Assembly: GCA_016234445.1 (NCBI GenBank)
Contig: JACRBT010000008.1
Span: forward strand, 9,109 to 73,108
From: Chloroflexota bacterium
GTDB lineage: Bacteria > Chloroflexota > Dehalococcoidia > Tepidiformales > Tepidiformaceae
Direction of reading: 5' to 3'
Length of the DNA: 64,000 bases
The notes under the pieces were generated by a model that worked only from the letters and a program-made list of their open reading frames with translations, searched no databases and was not told the origin of the DNA. This document shows, one piece after another, positions 36,174 to 64,000 of the stretch (positions are counted from its first letter, which is position 1; each line of letters begins with the position of its first letter). Made by a program: the position numbers and the translations under genes.

Positions 36174-36228
36174 CTGAGTCCCCAGTCCCCAGTCCCAAGT
36201 CCTAAACCCTAAGTCCCAAGTCCTCGCC
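36174..36228. repeat. Tandem heptanucleotide (STRR-like) array, CCCAGTC/CCAAGTC type
   Basis: CTGAGTC CCCAGTC CCCAGTC CCAAGTC CTAAACC CTAAGTC CCAAGTC, abutting the dnaK stop codon (36229-36231). Confidence 0.85.
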
Positions 36229-38134: not shown

Positions 38135-38305
38135 GAGCTATTAGCTCTTAGCTACTAGCCGTTAGTGTTTTGGAAGCTGTTAGCTGTTGGCTGTTAGCTC
38201 TTAGTGTTTTTGAAGCTGTTAGCCGTTAGCTATTAGTGCGCTCCGTTCGTCAGCCTGCGATTCATCTCACTCCACGTACTACTAATAGCTAACAGCTAAT
38301 AGCTA
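38135..38305. repeat. Heptamer (TTAGCTN/GCTGTTA) arrays in both orientations forming a long inverted repeat in the grpE-dnaK spacer
   Basis: The left arm 38214-38237 (agctgttagccgttagctattagt) pairs with 38281-38304 (actaatagctaacagctaatagct) at 22 of 24 positions. The loop is 43 nt. Confidence 0.8.
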
Positions 38306-40921: not shown

Positions 40922-41812
40922 CTAGCTAAGGATGGCGGCGTCGAACATCAGGCCAGCGGATGCCACGATTTCTGGCACTGCCTCCGCTCGTTCTACAGAG
41001 ACGTAGCCGGTTCCATCGCTGAACATGGTCACTTCGCCCGCGTCGGGCGCGGTGACATGGGCCGCAACGACATCGCCTCTCGCGAACCCTGGGGCATGCT
41101 CCACGATGTCACCTGCAAACTCGACCCATTGCCGCCTCCCTGCGCCCTCGGACTCGAAGAAAGCCGTGAGGCTATCATTTCGAACCTCCAAGGCCCATGG
41201 AACAAGGTTCGGGCCATAGCCCGCGCCCAGCCTTCTGGAGGCTGACAGCCGAGCTTCGACCGCCCTGGCAAAGGCGACCGGGTCTTGGAGCTCGCTGTCT
41301 GCCCATCCCATGGGCGAAGCATGCAGGGTCTTCCACGCGACGGCTTGAAAGCGAGATACGACTCTACGCGCCGGCGAAACGCAGCCGAGCAATAGACTAT
41401 CGTCAGCGAAGCGGCGTACGAACACCGCCGATTTAATCGTGGCGTCCGGCTTCGCCGCCACCCAGGGATTCACGGGGGGCTCGAGCGGATCGGTGATCTC
41501 GATGATACCGCCGGACGCCTTGGCGATCTCCGATTGGGGGAAGGCCTTCGCGGTTGCCTTCTGAACGTCCTCGAATGCCGTACGGGGGGGAATCCACGCA
41601 CAAGCAAATCGTAGCTCCGGGAGCCTTTCAGTCACTCTGGTGGCCCCGTTGGCTGCGCCGGCTGAACACGATATGCATCGCCGTCTACCCCGCTCCCACC
41701 CCAGGTGGGCTCTTGTGAATTCCGTCGCAATCTGACTTGGACGATGGCCAAGTATAATATCCGGCATCCCGCTGTCAACCACAAGCGCTCCGCGGCGCGG
41801 TTGACGGCGCAA
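40922..41812 (-). CDS. Hypothetical protein (cassette gene 1)
   Basis: 296 aa (alternative ATG 41767) with no recognisable motif. Low-GC region. Confidence 0.5.
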   Translation of the reverse strand: MRRQPRRGALVVDSGMPDIILGHRPSQIATEFTRAHLGWERGRRRCISCSAGAANGATRVTERLPELRFACAWIPPRTAFEDVQKATAKAFPQSEIAKASGGIIEITDPLEPPVNPWVAAKPDATIKSAVFVRRFADDSLLLGCVSPARRVVSRFQAVAWKTLHASPMGWADSELQDPVAFARAVEARLSASRRLGAGYGPNLVPWALEVRNDSLTAFFESEGAGRRQWVEFAGDIVEHAPGFARGDVVAAHVTAPDAGEVTMFSDGTGYVSVERAEAVPEIVASAGLMFDAAILS

Positions 41813-41891
41813 GATGCTCTTCTGTTATCTATCGGCGTTCGGCCCGCGCAAGCGTAGTGGGACCCGAGCCTGTCGAGGTATACTCCCGCCC

Positions 41892-42146
41892 ATGGCATCA
41901 GGACAAGCCCTCATCGACCTCTGCAAGCGGCACCTCGTCGAGACGATGCAGGCGCTTCCCGAGTGCGCTCCGGAAGGTCCCGGCCTCGGCCAGAAGGCGC
42001 TGGAGGAGGCAGCCGGTTTCGAGCTGAGTCTCCCCGAGTACGACGGTTACTTCACATGGTCGTTGCTCGTCGCGCTCACCATCGATGGCAAGGTCGAGGC
42101 GATCCAGCCCGGCAAGCGCAACAAGAAGTACCGGCTCGCCGGTTAG
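41892..42146 (+). CDS. Small hypothetical protein, possibly winged-helix
   Basis: ATG 41892 within ORF 41814..42146. 84 aa, divergent from the cassette. The C-terminus reads TWSLLVALTIDGKVEAIQPGKRNKKYRL. Confidence 0.45.
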   Translation: MASGQALIDLCKRHLVETMQALPECAPEGPGLGQKALEEAAGFELSLPEYDGYFTWSLLVALTIDGKVEAIQPGKRNKKYRLAG

Positions 42147-42156
42147 CCCCGCTTCG

Positions 42157-42191
42157 CCTCAGCCCTCAGTCCCCAGTCCTCGACCCTTCTC
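42157..42191. repeat. Tandem heptamers CCTCAGC/CCTCAGT/CCCCAGT
   Basis: cctcagc cctcagt ccccagt cctcgac ccttctc, starting 10 nt after the stop at 42146. Confidence 0.7.
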
Positions 42192-42219
42192 CTCCCAACT
42201 CCCGTACACTCGGGACACC

Positions 42220-42900
42220 GTGCCGACTCCTCCCCCCTCCCCCCCCGCTCCTCCCTCCATCGGCCTCCTCGGCGGCACCTTCGACCCGCCGCACATCGGC
42301 CACCTGGTGCTGGGGGAATGCGCGCGGGTGCAATTCGGCCTCGACAAGGTCATCTTCCTCCCCGCCGGCGACCCGTGGCGGAAGACAGGACTTAGGACTG
42401 AGGACTCAGGACTGAGGACTGAGATGCCTTCGCCGGCCGAGCACCGATTGGCGATGGTGCGGCTGGCGGTCGCCGGCAACCCCCACTTCGAAGTCGACGA
42501 CCGCGAGGTCCGCCGTCCCGGCCCCACCTACACCGTGGATACACTCGAGGAGTACCGAGTACCGAGTACCGAGTACCGAGTGGGGCCGGCGCTTGTCCTC
42601 ATCCTCGGGAGCGATGCGCTCGCCGACATGCCCAACTGGAAGGACCCCGACCGCATCCGCGCCCTCGCCACCCTCGCCGTCGCCCCCAAACCCGCCACCG
42701 CAGACGTGGACCCGGGACTCGGGACTCAGTACCCGGCACTCACCATCGACATGCCGCCGCTGGCCATCAGCTCGACCGTCATCCGCGCGCGCGTCGCCGC
42801 CGGCAAGCCCATCCGCTACCTCGTCCCCGAAGCGGTCGAAGCCTACATCCGCGAACACATGCTCTACGTGGGGGTGAAGCGCCAGCCGCCGGGGGTTTAG
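42220..42900 (+). CDS. nadD: Nicotinate-nucleotide adenylyltransferase, carrying three in-frame heptamer-repeat insertions
   Basis: IGLLGGTFDPPHIGH, FLPAGDPWRK, AEHRLAMVRLAV and ISSTVIRARVAAGK. A GTG 42220 start is proposed; the longest ORF begins at 42085. Confidence 0.85.
   Translation: MPTPPPSPPAPPSIGLLGGTFDPPHIGHLVLGECARVQFGLDKVIFLPAGDPWRKTGLRTEDSGLRTEMPSPAEHRLAMVRLAVAGNPHFEVDDREVRRPGPTYTVDTLEEYRVPSTEYRVGPALVLILGSDALADMPNWKDPDRIRALATLAVAPKPATADVDPGLGTQYPALTIDMPPLAISSTVIRARVAAGKPIRYLVPEAVEAYIREHMLYVGVKRQPPGV
42388..42422. repeat. Five tandem heptamers GGACT(T/G/C)A inside nadD
   Basis: ggactta ggactga ggactca ggactga ggactga, encoding GLRTEDSGLRTE. Confidence 0.85.
42550..42581. repeat. 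(GAGTACC)x4 plus a partial unit, inside nadD
   Basis: gagtacc x4 followed by gagt, encoding EYRVPSTEYRV. Confidence 0.85.
42714..42734. repeat. GGGACTC GGGACTC AGTACCC inside nadD
   Basis: Three heptamers (21 nt, 7 codons) encoding GLGTQYP. Confidence 0.7.
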
Positions 42901-42951
42901 CTGTTAGCTGTTAGCTGTTAGCTGTTAGCTGTTAGCTGTTAGCTGTTAGTT
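42895..42951. repeat. (GTTAGCT)n tandem heptamer array overlapping the nadD stop codon
   Basis: GTTTAGCT, then six perfect GTTAGCT units, then GTTAGTT. The nadD TAG (42898-42900) lies in the first unit. Confidence 0.9.
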
Positions 42952-42963
42952 GGGGACGGTCGC

Positions 42964-43230
42964 CTACGACCCCTTGTACACGTCCCCGCGTGGGCCGATC
43001 TCCGCGACATCCACGATTCGGACTTCGTCGTCCACGGAATAGAGGATTCGCAGCGAACCACACCGCGCTCGGCGCACACCATCCGTTCGGCCGTGCAGGG
43101 CAGGGAACTGCGGGGCGTAGGGGTCCTCGCAAATCTCAAGGATCTTCGCATGCACCAACCGGCGCCGCTTGGCATCGAGGCGGCCGAAGTAGCGCTCGGC
43201 TGCTCCGGAAACGCGGTAGCTGTAGTTCAA
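42964..43230 (-). CDS. RelE/ParE family type II toxin
   Basis: 88 aa with RARCGSLRILYSVDDEVRIVDVAEIGPRGDVY, typical of RelE/ParE. It overlaps the upstream antitoxin gene by 4 nt. Confidence 0.8.
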   Translation of the reverse strand: MNYSYRVSGAAERYFGRLDAKRRRLVHAKILEICEDPYAPQFPALHGRTDGVRRARCGSLRILYSVDDEVRIVDVAEIGPRGDVYKGS

Positions 43231-43439
43231 AGGTCGTACTTGCGCTCAAACTCTTCGCGCGTCACGAAGTCGCCGCGTTCCATCGCCGCCCTGGCCTCGA
43301 GGAGGCGCTCCTCCTCTTCGGAGGTCAGCGTGTCGTCGGCGCAAAGCCACTCCCACAGCGCCCGGAGCTCCTCCGGCGGCAGTTGCTCGATGTACTGGTG
43401 CAGGTCGGCCTTCAGCGAAGTGAGCTCGGCGGTGGTCAT
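43227..43439 (-). CDS. Putative antitoxin (addiction-module component)
   Basis: ATG 43439. 70 aa, helical and acidic (LKADLHQYIEQLPPEELRALWEWL...GDFVTREEFERKY). Translationally coupled to the toxin. Confidence 0.65.
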   Translation of the reverse strand: MTTAELTSLKADLHQYIEQLPPEELRALWEWLCADDTLTSEEEERLLEARAAMERGDFVTREEFERKYDL

Positions 43440-43576
43440 GCCCCCCAGTATACGCCAGCCCGATAGCCGGTGGCCGTCGGCCGACAGCCGATCGCCCCCG
43501 AGGGCTGTGCTACGATGGATCTCCACTTCCCCCGGGAGCCACTCCGTTCGCGTACGTACCGCTTCGCCATCCCTTC

Positions 43577-46500
43577 ATGGACCGCCTGCGGGAGCAGGTG
43601 TTGTTCGCTGCCGGGCCGATCGGCTCGAGCATCCTCGCCATGCGCCCGGGGCCGGACTACGGCGAGGTCGACGGCTGTAACGAATACCTCAACATCTCCG
43701 ACCCGGCGGCCCTCGAAGCCATCTTCCGCGGCTTCTACGCCGCCGGGGCCGACGCCGTCGATTCGGGTACGTTTGGGGCGAACGAAGTCGTCCTCGCCGA
43801 ATTCGGGCTCGCCGCCCGCACCCGCGAGCTCAACCGCGTCGCCGCGCAGCTTCTCGGGGCCGTCCGCGACGAGTTCAGCACCGCCGAGTGGCCCCGCTAC
43901 AGCTTCGGCACGATCGGCCCCGGCACCCGGCTTCCCACCCTCGGCCACGTCACCTGGGACGAACTCGTCCACAGCTACCGCGAACAGGCGCTCGGCCTCG
44001 TCGAAGGCGGGATCGACGTCCTCAAGGTCGAAACCTGCCAGGACCTCCTCCAGACGAAGGCCGCTCTCGCCGCGATCAGCGACGTCTTCGCCGAGACCGG
44101 CGCCCGCCTCCCCGTTATCGCCAGCGTCTCCGTCGAGACGAACGGCACCATGCTCCTCGGCTCCGACATCTCCAGCGCCCTGACCACCCTCGAAGCGATC
44201 GACATCGTCGACATCATCGGCCTCAACTGCTCCCTCGGGCCGGACCTGATGATGGAGCACGTCCGCTACCTCGGCGAACACTCGCGGCGGCCGGTGTTCG
44301 TCGGCCCGAACGCCGGGCTCCCGGAACTGGTCGACGGCGAGGCATGCTATCCCCTCAGCCCGGACGAATTCGCCCGCTACCAGTCGATCTTCGTGGACGA
44401 ATTCGGGATCAACGTCGTCGCCGGCTGCTGCGGCACCACCCCGGAGCACATGGCGGCCGCCATCAACGTGGTCGGCCGGCGCGCGCCGAAAGCCCGCCCA
44501 ACGAGCGGCTACGAACCGGGCTGCTCCTCGATCTATACGGCCGTCCCCTTCCGCCAGGAAACCTCCTTCCTCGTCGTCGGCGAACGCACGAACGCGACCG
44601 GCTCCCGCGCCTTCCGCGACCTCCTCCTCGCGGGCGACCTCGACGGCATGGTCGGCCTCGCCCGCGAACAGGCCGCCGAAGGGGCGCACGTCCTCGACGT
44701 CATGGTCGACTACGTCGGCCGCGACGGCGTCGCCGACATGGAGAAGGTGGCCGGCGCCTTCCGCACCCAGACGACCCTGCCTCTCATGTTCGACTCCACG
44801 GAGCCGCCGGTCATCGAAACCGCGCTCAAGCTCTACGGCGGCAAGGCGATCGTCAACTCCATCAACCTCGAAGACGGCGAGCGCAAGATCACCCGCGTCC
44901 TACCGCTGTTGAAGCGCTACGGGGCCGCCGCCGTCGCCCTCACCATCGACGAAGAGGGTCAGGCCCGGACCACCGAGTGGAAGCTCCGCGTTGCCCACCG
45001 CATCCACGACATCGCCGTGAACCGGTACGGCCTCGAACCTTCCGACCTCCTCTTCGACATGCTCACCTTCCCCCTCTCCGGCGGCCAGGAAGACCTTCGC
45101 GGCGACGCGATCGAGACCCTCAACGCCATCCGCCAGGTCAAGGCCGAACTCCCGGGGGTGAACACCATCCTCGGCGTCTCGAACTGCTCATTCGGGCTGA
45201 AGCCGGCCGCCCGGCGGGTGCTCAACTCCGTCTTCCTCCACGAGGCGATCGACCACGGCCTCGACGCCGCGATCATCAACGCCCGCCAGATCCTGCCCCT
45301 GAACCGCATCCCCGAACCCCAGCTTCTCGCCGCCCGCGACCTCATCTACGACCGCCGCCGGCCCGACTACGACCCCCTCCACCACTTCATCGGCCTCTTC
45401 GAAGGCGCCGAAGTCGAGAAGACCTCGAAGCCCGACCGCGCCAGCCTTCCGGTCGAGGAGCGCCTCAAGCAGCGGATCATCGACGGCGATCGCAAGGGCA
45501 TCGAAGCCGACCTCGACGAAGCCCTCTCCGGCCGCGGCGCCCTTGCCATCGTCAACGAGATCCTCCTCGACGGCATGCGCGTCGTGGGCGACCTCTTCGG
45601 CTCCGGGAAGATGCAGCTGCCGTTCGTCCTCCAGAGCGCCGAGACGATGAAGACCTCCGTCGCCTACCTCGAACCGCACATGGAGAAGGCCGAGGGCGCC
45701 GGCAAGGGCACGGTCGTGCTCGCCACCGTCCGCGGCGACGTCCATGACATCGGCAAGAACCTCGTCGACATCATCCTTTCGAACAACGGCTACACAGTGC
45801 ACAACATCGGGATCAAGCAGCCCATTGCCAACGTCATCGAAAAGGCGGCGGAGGTCGGGGCCGACGCGCTCGGGCTCAGCGGGCTGCTCGTCAAGAGCAC
45901 GGTCGTCATGCGCGAAGACCTCGAAGAGCTGAACGCCCGGGGGCTCGCGCGCTACCCGGTGCTCCTCGGCGGGGCCGCGCTCACGCGCAAGTACGTCGAA
46001 TCCGACCTCCGCGCGATCTACGACGGCAACGTCTTCTACTGCCAGGACGCGTTCGAGGGCCTTTCGACGATGGACCACGTGATGGCCGCCGTCCGCTCCG
46101 GCGAACCCCTGACGGCGCTCACGCGCGGCGCGAAGCCGGTCGAAGGCGGCGTTTACGACACCGTCCGGGCCACCGTCCCCGCTGCCGCGGCCCGCGCCGC
46201 CGAACGCGAGTACGTTCGCTCCGACGTCCGCCGCCTGGCCCCCGCCGAGATCCCGGTGCCGCCGTTCTGGGGCAGCCGCGTCGTCGCCGGCATCCCCCTG
46301 CGCGACGTCTTCCCGTGGGTGAACGAGACCGCCCTCTTCCGGGGCCAGTGGCAGTACCAGAAGGGCGAACGCAGCGACGGCGAATACGCCGCTTTCGTCG
46401 AAAACGAAGTGCGCCCCGTCTTCCGGCGCTGGCAGGACCGCGCCATCAAGGAGCAGCTCCTGGTGCCACAGGTGGCCTATGGCTACTTCCCCTGCATCGC

Positions 46501-63945: not shown

Positions 63946-63987
63946 GGGTACCGAGTCCCCAGTCCCGAGTCCCGAGTCCCGAGTCCC
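63946..63987. repeat. Tandem heptamers GAGTCCC/CAGTCCC directly after the mgtE stop
   Basis: ggggtac c gagtccc cagtccc gagtccc gagtccc gagtccc, beginning at the base after the TAG (63943-63945). Confidence 0.85.
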
Positions 63988-64000
63988 GTCCGCGCCCCGC

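Follow-up and report, generated by a model that had tools for sequence, protein, structure and literature searches.

How do tandem repeats built on a seven-nucleotide unit, a length that is not a multiple of three, come to lie inside a housekeeping gene? The question is raised by nadD in a 64,000-nucleotide stretch of DNA from a Chloroflexota metagenome-assembled genome (MAG; GenBank assembly GCA_016234445.1, contig JACRBT010000008.1, positions 9,109 to 73,108 of the forward strand), all of which was analysed and which is called the window below. NadD is a housekeeping enzyme of NAD synthesis and a drug target in pathogens, and nadD is essential wherever this has been tested in bacteria. Three heptamer arrays lie in frame within its coding region, and in related genomes these sites are occupied by arrays built on other units. 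The explanation that we consider likely is that the loops of NadD are recurrently colonised by a class of heptamer repeats resembling short tandemly repeated repetitive (STRR) sequences, and that this colonisation is tolerated.

Heptamer arrays in the nadD gene of the window

Arrays were called with Tandem Repeats Finder (TRF) and by direct reading of the sequence. The gene and the arrays in and around it are as follows.

42220 to 42900, + strand: nadD coding sequence, 226 residues from GTG 42220, with NCBIfam, Pfam, PDB and fold matches
42387 to 42423, + strand: site 1 array, units GGACTTA, GGACTGA, GGACTCA, GGACTGA, GGACTGA and a final G (TRF unit AGGACTG, period 7, 5.3 copies, 90% matches)
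42550 to 42581, + strand: site 2 array, 4.6 perfect copies of GAGTACC (TRF 100% matches, score 64)
42708 to 42734, + strand: site 3 array, decayed, with units GGGACTC, GGGACTC and AGTACCC (TRF part 42708 to 42727, unit GGACTCG, 2.9 copies, 92% matches)
42157 to 42181, + strand: upstream spacer array of the CCTCAGT family, reverse-complementary to the unit of site 1 (TRF)
42897 to 42949, + strand: 3' array, 7.6 perfect copies of TTAGCTG (TRF score 106)

The site 1 array encodes residues 57 to 68, GLRTEDSGLRTE, and the site 2 array residues 111 to 121, EYRVPSTEYRV. Positions 42714 to 42734 of site 3, which include the variant unit AGTACCC, encode residues 166 to 172, GLGTQYP. The upstream array has an orthologous array 5' of nadD in the closest relative, locus L001. 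At the other end of the gene, the nadD stop codon TAG (42898 to 42900) comes from the first TTAGCTG unit of the 3' array, which sits where nadD and a ParE-type toxin gene converge, between their stop codons.

Period-7 arrays exceed chance in the window: among periods of 4 to 12 nucleotides, period 7 alone yields arrays of at least four units at ≥85% lag identity, with six such arrays against none for each other period. Taken alone, site 3 is a borderline array. We accept it as real on two grounds: the arrays at 36177 and 63951, of the AGTCCC(C/G) family, have the reverse complement of its unit, and 4.4 copies of GTACTCG stand at the same position in the closest relative.

The gene that houses these arrays appears intact, with a core under strong purifying selection. 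The window protein scores 167.9 bits against the NCBIfam nadD equivalog NF000840 (cut-off 150) and 149.6 bits against TIGR00482 (cut-off 112.45), matches the Pfam family CTP_transf_like and aligns with NadD sequences of the PDB (best E=1.6e-36). It contains both the (H/T)xGH nucleotidyltransferase motif, as GGTFDPPHIGH, and the C-terminal ISSTxxR motif, as ISSTVIRAR. A 23-sequence alignment has 49 invariant columns, among them those of GGTFDPPHxGH and ISSTxIR, and the window protein retains every one. An AlphaFold model built on the same alignment has a mean predicted local distance difference test (pLDDT) value of 84.9, and the top 50 Foldseek matches listed for it are all solved NadD structures (TM-scores up to 0.92, normalised by target length), so that model and search agree on a Rossmann-like NadD fold. 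Over 148 codons of the core, the comparison with the L001 gene (protein P0002) gives a ratio of nonsynonymous to synonymous substitution rates (dN/dS) of 0.126, with dS = 0.46 and dN = 0.058, and nearly all the amino-acid differences between the two proteins fall within the repeat-bearing segments. On the basis of the core dN/dS, the NadD of the window is presumably still an active enzyme.

The gene caller's product (P0001) is 271 residues long and starts at ATG 42085, so that it overlaps the upstream gene and crosses the upstream heptamer array. GTG 42220 is the likelier start, because NadD homologues begin about 13 residues ahead of GGTFDPPH. The closest homologues with a named source belong to Dehalococcoidia or Tepidiformaceae MAGs of the Chloroflexota, and the host is an uncultured Dehalococcoidia/Tepidiformia-like lineage of that phylum from groundwater.

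As the window is a metagenome-assembled contig, its arrays might be assembly artefacts, or the gene might be a decaying pseudogene backed up by a second nadD. We looked at Logan contigs from the four runs that contain the sequence (X1 to X4), all of one groundwater study. Site 1 is covered by contigs of X1, X2 and X4 and site 3 by contigs of X1 and X3, in every case with zero differences; an independent assembler thus reproduces both sites. Within site 2 and within the 3' array, which have words in common with other loci, the Logan contigs are interrupted, and the copy number at site 2 is that of the MAG assembly alone. MAGs of other studies also have arrays at the same sites, and the open frame, the full set of conserved motifs and the dN/dS of 0.13 all speak for a functional gene. 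We give artefact or pseudogene status next to no credence.

In the predicted structure, all three arrays map to loops. Site 1 lies without secondary structure between a strand (residues 43 to 48) and a helix (72 to 84), and the mean pLDDT over residues 51 to 70 is 53-63 in 10-residue blocks. Site 2 covers the end of helix 105 to 113 and the loop that precedes strand 124 to 130, with block pLDDT values of 75-82, and site 3 lies inside the loop 156 to 173, with a mean of 57 for residues 161 to 170. Solved NadD sequences of the PDB have a 10-residue gap opposite LRTEDSGLRT of site 1, and loop 1, counted from a conserved Lys to the HR motif, has 19 residues in the window against 9 in repeat-free relatives. 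The site 2 segment exceeds the 15-residue baseline of relatives by 5 residues. Net, site 1 has gained 30 nt and site 2 has gained 15 nt, neither a multiple of 7, which implies that the arrays also replaced part of the original loops. At site 3, loop length varies throughout the NadD family, so that only colonisation or replacement can be claimed and not lengthening; we dropped the idea of a clean insertion there for the same reason.

These results confirm what the sequence-only reading of this stretch observed and partly bear out its interpretation. It had described three in-frame heptamer arrays inside nadD, with coordinates and peptides that direct reading and TRF reproduced, units related to the spacer families, some as reverse complements, which TRF found across the window, and a segment before the HR motif about 10 residues longer than in B. 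subtilis NadD, which the PDB gap and the 19 versus 9 residues confirm. Alignment with orthologues and mapping on a structure, which it had proposed as a check, placed the arrays in loops, and the extra residues are absent from repeat-free orthologues. Its notion of a repeat invasion tolerated in surface loops fits these observations and the intact gene. Its term 'insertions' held for the extra length, which is real; plain insertion is too simple a description, given the partial replacement.

The same loops in related genomes

Thirteen relatives in which loop 1 is long, found through individual protein look-ups and picked for repeat-like loop peptides, were compared at the DNA level. In 11 of them, the autocorrelation of the loop 1 DNA peaks at lag 7, with values of 0.45-0.82 against about 0.3 elsewhere in the same coding sequence, and unexpanded site 2 segments show ordinary codon periodicity. 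At least 10 different heptamer units were found at site 1 over the long-loop genomes, as listed here with the arrays of sites 2 and 3.

Site 1, window: GGACTGA
Site 1, L001: AGTCCTC, five copies
Site 1, L002: GGACTGA and TCAGTCC, as inverted arms around a core of ~75 nt
Site 1, L083: GTGCTGA, three copies, abutting TCAGCAC, three copies
Site 1, L084: GTCCCNG
Site 1, L086: CTYAGYC
Site 1, L167: AGTCCCG
Site 1, L168: GAGTCCT
Site 1, L169: AGGCCCG
Site 1, L170: ACGAGCA and CCTCCCT
Site 1, L171: GCCAACA
Site 2: window; L001 (TCAGTCC, three copies); L169 (CAATCGT, five copies)
Site 3: window; L001 (GTACTCG, 4.4 copies); L083 and L168 (AAATCCA); L170 (GGAGGGA and CAATCGT); the distant L138 (GAAGAGG, 5.9 copies)

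Arrays at the N- or C-terminal end of nadD are also present in L001, L083, L084, L086, L168 and L170. Wherever arrays of other units occupy the NadD sites of relatives, they are in frame.

A maximum-likelihood tree of 120 homologues was computed with the loop columns removed. Its deep branches are poorly resolved; it pairs the window protein with P0002 (SH-aLRT support 98) and implies no fewer than six switches of loop 1 from short to long or back. Long loop 1 thus appears to have arisen or been lost several times. Of 107 scorable homologues, loop 1 is short in 55 (12 residues in three of them and exactly 9 in all the others) and long in about half; a large sister clade has the 9-residue loop. 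Taken together, the NadD loops look like permissive hot-spots with fast turnover across the whole lineage. No period-7 array was detected in nadD of 80 species representatives from a genome collection, and scans of metagenome and genome contigs (80 loci each, mostly distant relatives) found few arrays in or beside nadD, namely at site 3 in L138 and as upstream hairpins in L098 and L132.

The peptides themselves might be adaptive, for instance as flexible lids near the nicotinate mononucleotide site or as interaction segments. Site 1 lies between the invariant residues K55 and R76, adjoining the substrate-binding region of NadD, and loop 1 is long in about half of the homologues that could be scored. 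Nevertheless, even the two closest genomes differ in these peptides (GLRTEDSGLRTE against SPQSSVLSPQSS), it is the DNA unit that determines their sequence, the model is of low confidence where they lie and the sister clade works with nine residues. We regard an adaptive role of the peptides as very improbable.

How the arrays of the window and of L001 are related can be described in more than one way. At dS = 0.46, their units are either mismatched at 1-3 of the 7 positions or reverse-complementary to each other. Site 1 might derive from an ancestral inverted pair like that of L002, of which the window would have kept the left arm and L001 the right arm, an attractive scheme. Alternatively, the arrays may at this distance have diverged in place and been homogenised, for GGACTGA shares 4 of 7 positions with a rotation of AGTCCTC when both are read in one orientation.

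Several minor observations concern arrays in or near the nadD genes of relatives. Inverted heptamer arrays lie directly 5' of the nadD start in the more distant relatives L098 (125 to 192) and L132 (1354 to 1478), for example CAGTAAA against ACTGTTC. The array 5' of nadD in L086 (~1930 to 1985) has an 8-nt unit, CGCCCAYT, in six copies. In L169, a partial copy of the 5' part of nadD (1071 to 1346) precedes the intact gene (1501 to 2181) and includes the site 1 array (GGCCCGG at 1200 to 1228, versus AGGCCCG at 1653 to 1682), and a Phd/YefM antitoxin gene lies between the two copies. In L170, one unit family occurs three times in nadD (76 to 104, 289 to 317 and 576 to 602), as CTCCTCC at the N terminus and at site 1 and as the complement GGAGGGA at site 3, which suggests local spread inside one gene.

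Reading frame, slippage and pairing

A heptamer array runs through all three codon phases every 21 nt, and a unit that contains a stop triplet in any phase will sooner or later close the frame. GGACTGA has TGA in one phase, and at site 1 it is the third unit that occupies it.

42406 to 42408, + strand: codon TCA (Ser63) in the third unit, GGACTCA, of site 1, read directly from the sequence; a perfect GGACTGA would give a TGA stop here

The array then ends just short of the next unit due in the stop phase. The corresponding unit of L002, which falls in this phase too, is likewise degenerate (G GGC GCA). Units free of stops form near-perfect or perfect arrays, such as TCAGTCC in L001 and GAGTACC at site 2 of the window, the latter having no stop codon in any phase. 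TTAGCTG, with TAG in one phase, makes the 3' array close all three frames within 21 nt. Such a pattern of stop avoidance is to be expected if the arrays are translated and the gene is needed, and TCA in place of TGA points to selection for an open frame.

The sequence-only reading had offered contingency-like length variation as a second possibility, in which slippage by one unit would shift the frame and switch nadD off and on in part of the population. The unit length is suited to such a switch, any change by one unit being frame-shifting, and site 2 is a perfect tract of 4.6 copies. However, nadD serves a housekeeping function and evolves under strong purifying selection (dN/dS 0.13), the three arrays are short, only one of them being uninterrupted, the change of TGA to TCA points to a permanently open frame, and the arrays of other units at the same sites in relatives are never out of frame. 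No length variants at sites 1 and 3 were found in the Logan contigs of the four runs, although such contigs drop rare variants. The suggestion thus found no support in the contigs that cover these two sites, and a phase-variable nadD seems very unlikely.

The opposite orientation of several arrays raises the possibility of a role at the level of nucleic acids, inverted arrays pairing in mRNA or in single-stranded DNA and thereby tuning translation, stability or replication. In both the minimum-energy and the centroid folds of 42140 to 42440, site 1 is paired with the upstream array (z = -2.4); pairing between sites 2 and 3 is imperfect (z = -1.9). The values are more pronounced in two relatives, where the site 1 insert of L083 (2173 to 2232) forms a near-perfect hairpin (z = -5.8) and the inverted arms of L002 (486 to 624) pair (z = -3.7), both being translated in frame; L170 combines CCTCCCT at site 1 with GGAGGGA at site 3. 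Yet pairing is not conserved, since all family arrays of L001 have the same orientation; partners and positions vary between genomes, and the z-scores of the window are modest.

In seven of eight aligned nadD loci, a -10-like box (TACAAT or TACACT) lies 6-12 nt 5' of the start codon, which suggests a leaderless nadD transcript that would exclude the upstream array. No RNA run was found to hold the nadD of the window. Translational control by pairing of the upstream array with site 1 was considered as a candidate and is weakened both by the unconserved pairing and by the likely promoter just before the start codon. We treat the inverted arrangement as a by-product of the spread of the arrays and not as a selected structure, because it is unconserved and because a leaderless transcript is suggested; a nucleic-acid-level role is improbable.

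A dispersed repeat class and its known counterparts

Across the 64 kb, TRF detected nine period-7 arrays of four unit families, in both orientations.

Family AGTCCC(C/G): at 36177 and 63951; inverted at site 3 (42708)
Family TTAGCTG: at 38136 and at the nadD stop (42897); inverted at 38282
Family TCAGTCC: upstream of nadD (42157); inverted at site 1 (42387)
Family GAGTACC: at site 2

Six of the nine lie in spacers or overlap a stop codon. In the source metagenome, 31-mers of the arrays are 20-100 times deeper than the unique flanks, which implies many more copies of the arrays in the community. The flanks of ten array-bearing nadD loci contain 0.26 strong period-7 arrays per kb, against 0.022 in the loci of other relatives (490 kb).

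The tolerated colonisation of nadD loops by such a repeat class might proceed as follows. The seeds of arrays would most likely be copies of existing arrays, placed either way round, and the arrays would then lengthen or shorten through replication slippage. Within genes, selection would leave only arrays that are in frame, free of stops and placed in loops that tolerate insertions. In nadD, arrays would have entered three loops and the C-terminal end, partly replacing the original loop sequence, and they would be translated as low-complexity loop peptides, probably disordered and without a function of their own. As to the first step, one array might be copied from another, or local sequence might slip.

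Several points weigh against this explanation. No gene of the window other than nadD has arrays in its interior, and three of the nine arrays fall in 1% of the sequence. Array-bearing nadD genes contain 3.2 arrays per kb, a value inflated by the choice of loci with repeat-like loop peptides. Simple random colonisation does not predict such clustering in nadD, which may reflect local spread or a special tolerance of this gene. Not every expansion is traceable to heptamers, as the long loops of L172 and L173, two of the 13 relatives, show no period-7 signal; either array decay or a different origin of the loops would account for this. The arrays of the window and of L001 may go back to shared ancestry or to separate acquisition. 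The copying step is inferred from shared units, and the activity of NadD and the neutrality of its loop peptides are likewise inferred.

A bolder alternative posits an undescribed active process in Chloroflexota that draws on a shared repertoire of units and writes heptamer arrays of either orientation into the DNA, frequently as inverted pairs able to fold into hairpins, with the NadD loops as recurrent landing sites. We consider it unlikely. If true, it would make repeat invasion a regular source of new protein loops in Chloroflexota and not a matter of occasional slippage.

We then compared the arrays with known repeat systems. The cyanobacterial STRR sequences were reportedly described by Mazel et al. 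in 1990, and the AGTCCCC/AGTCCCG unit of the window is also the STRR1 unit CCCCAGT of cyanobacteria. Heptamer repeats are described in Nostoc, as GGGGA(C/T)T, of which the AGTCCCC of the window is the complement (GGGGACT), and in Xanthomonas, as GGGAATC (PMC4692102). According to the summary of Mrazek et al. 2007 that PMC4679880 gives, heptamers outnumber every other class of longer simple repeats in many prokaryotes. The arrays of the window resemble STRR and the heptameric simple sequence repeats of other large, GC-rich genomes in having tandem 7-nt units in short arrays of ~3-8 copies, which are dispersed, belong to few unit families, occur in both orientations and occasionally inverted, and prefer spacers, a few bases from stop codons. 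Their host is a member of the Chloroflexota, so that they fall outside STRR sequences in the strict sense, which are cyanobacterial. Furthermore, the published heptamer classes are reportedly under-represented within coding sequences, whereas three arrays lie here in interior loops of one essential enzyme, a situation that recurs across the clade. No description of heptanucleotide repeats in Chloroflexota was found in the literature.

The TAACTGA direct repeats of marine Beggiatoaceae are mainly intergenic, and the minority that overlap open reading frames do so nearly always at protein ends (MacGregor 2015, PMC4679880). As with TTAGCTG at the nadD stop, a unit that carries a stop necessarily ends the frame. 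In the Beggiatoaceae, a single unit dominates and its copies within genes are at protein ends, in contrast with the many units and the interior loops found here.

The classic parallel within housekeeping genes is offered by the Rickettsia palindromic elements (RPE), summarised in PMC10969869 as repeat DNA inserted in frame in unrelated housekeeping genes, translated and compatible with the fold. The nadD of the window is similar in harbouring in-frame repeat DNA at positions that the fold tolerates, and the hairpin-forming inverted arrays at site 1 of L083 and L002 are reminiscent of RPE. However, RPE are ~150 bp long with a conserved sequence and encoded peptide, and the present inserts are tandem arrays of 20-40 nt (20-37 nt in the window) whose unit varies between sites and between genomes. 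They have no conserved element sequence, terminal inverted repeats or target-site duplication, which sets them apart from RPE and from miniature inverted-repeat transposable elements.

Contingency loci of host-adapted bacteria consist of tracts of 1-5-nt units, occasionally 7-nt units, in surface or restriction-modification genes. The nadD arrays share with them a tandem tract in a coding region and a unit that is not a multiple of three. They differ in that nadD is a housekeeping gene, its tracts are short and partly interrupted, the contigs show no length heterogeneity and the host lives freely in groundwater. Relative to all these known repeats, the novelty of the present arrays is in the host phylum, in their location within interior loops of an essential enzyme and in the occupation of the same loops by many different units.

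For genome annotation, the case of nadD means that simple repeats with a frame-breaking unit can persist in an essential enzyme if they lie in loops, are free of stops and add up to a multiple of three. The recurrent remodelling of three NadD loops amounts to a natural map of insertion-tolerant sites, of interest for protein evolution, and heptamer arrays in NadD are a tractable case for studying how such arrays originate and spread. In metagenomics, peptides such as SVLSPQS, GLRTED and EYRVPST in conserved proteins of these MAGs should be taken as footprints of repeats and not as domains. For phase variation, the nadD arrays give no pointer to a new regulatory switch.

Some further features of the window deserve mention. 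An Rfam scan of 41000 to 44000 gave no real match. The arrays at 36177 to 36223 and 63951 to 63988 (AGTCCCC/AGTCCCG) lie just after gene ends, and their G-rich strand has runs of three or four G. Directly 3' of nadD, a pair of genes on the - strand (42964 to 43526) codes for a ParE-family toxin of 88 residues (PF05016, E=6.9e-07) and for a 99-residue protein with no family match, whose open reading frame overlaps the toxin gene by 4 nt and which we presume to be the antitoxin.

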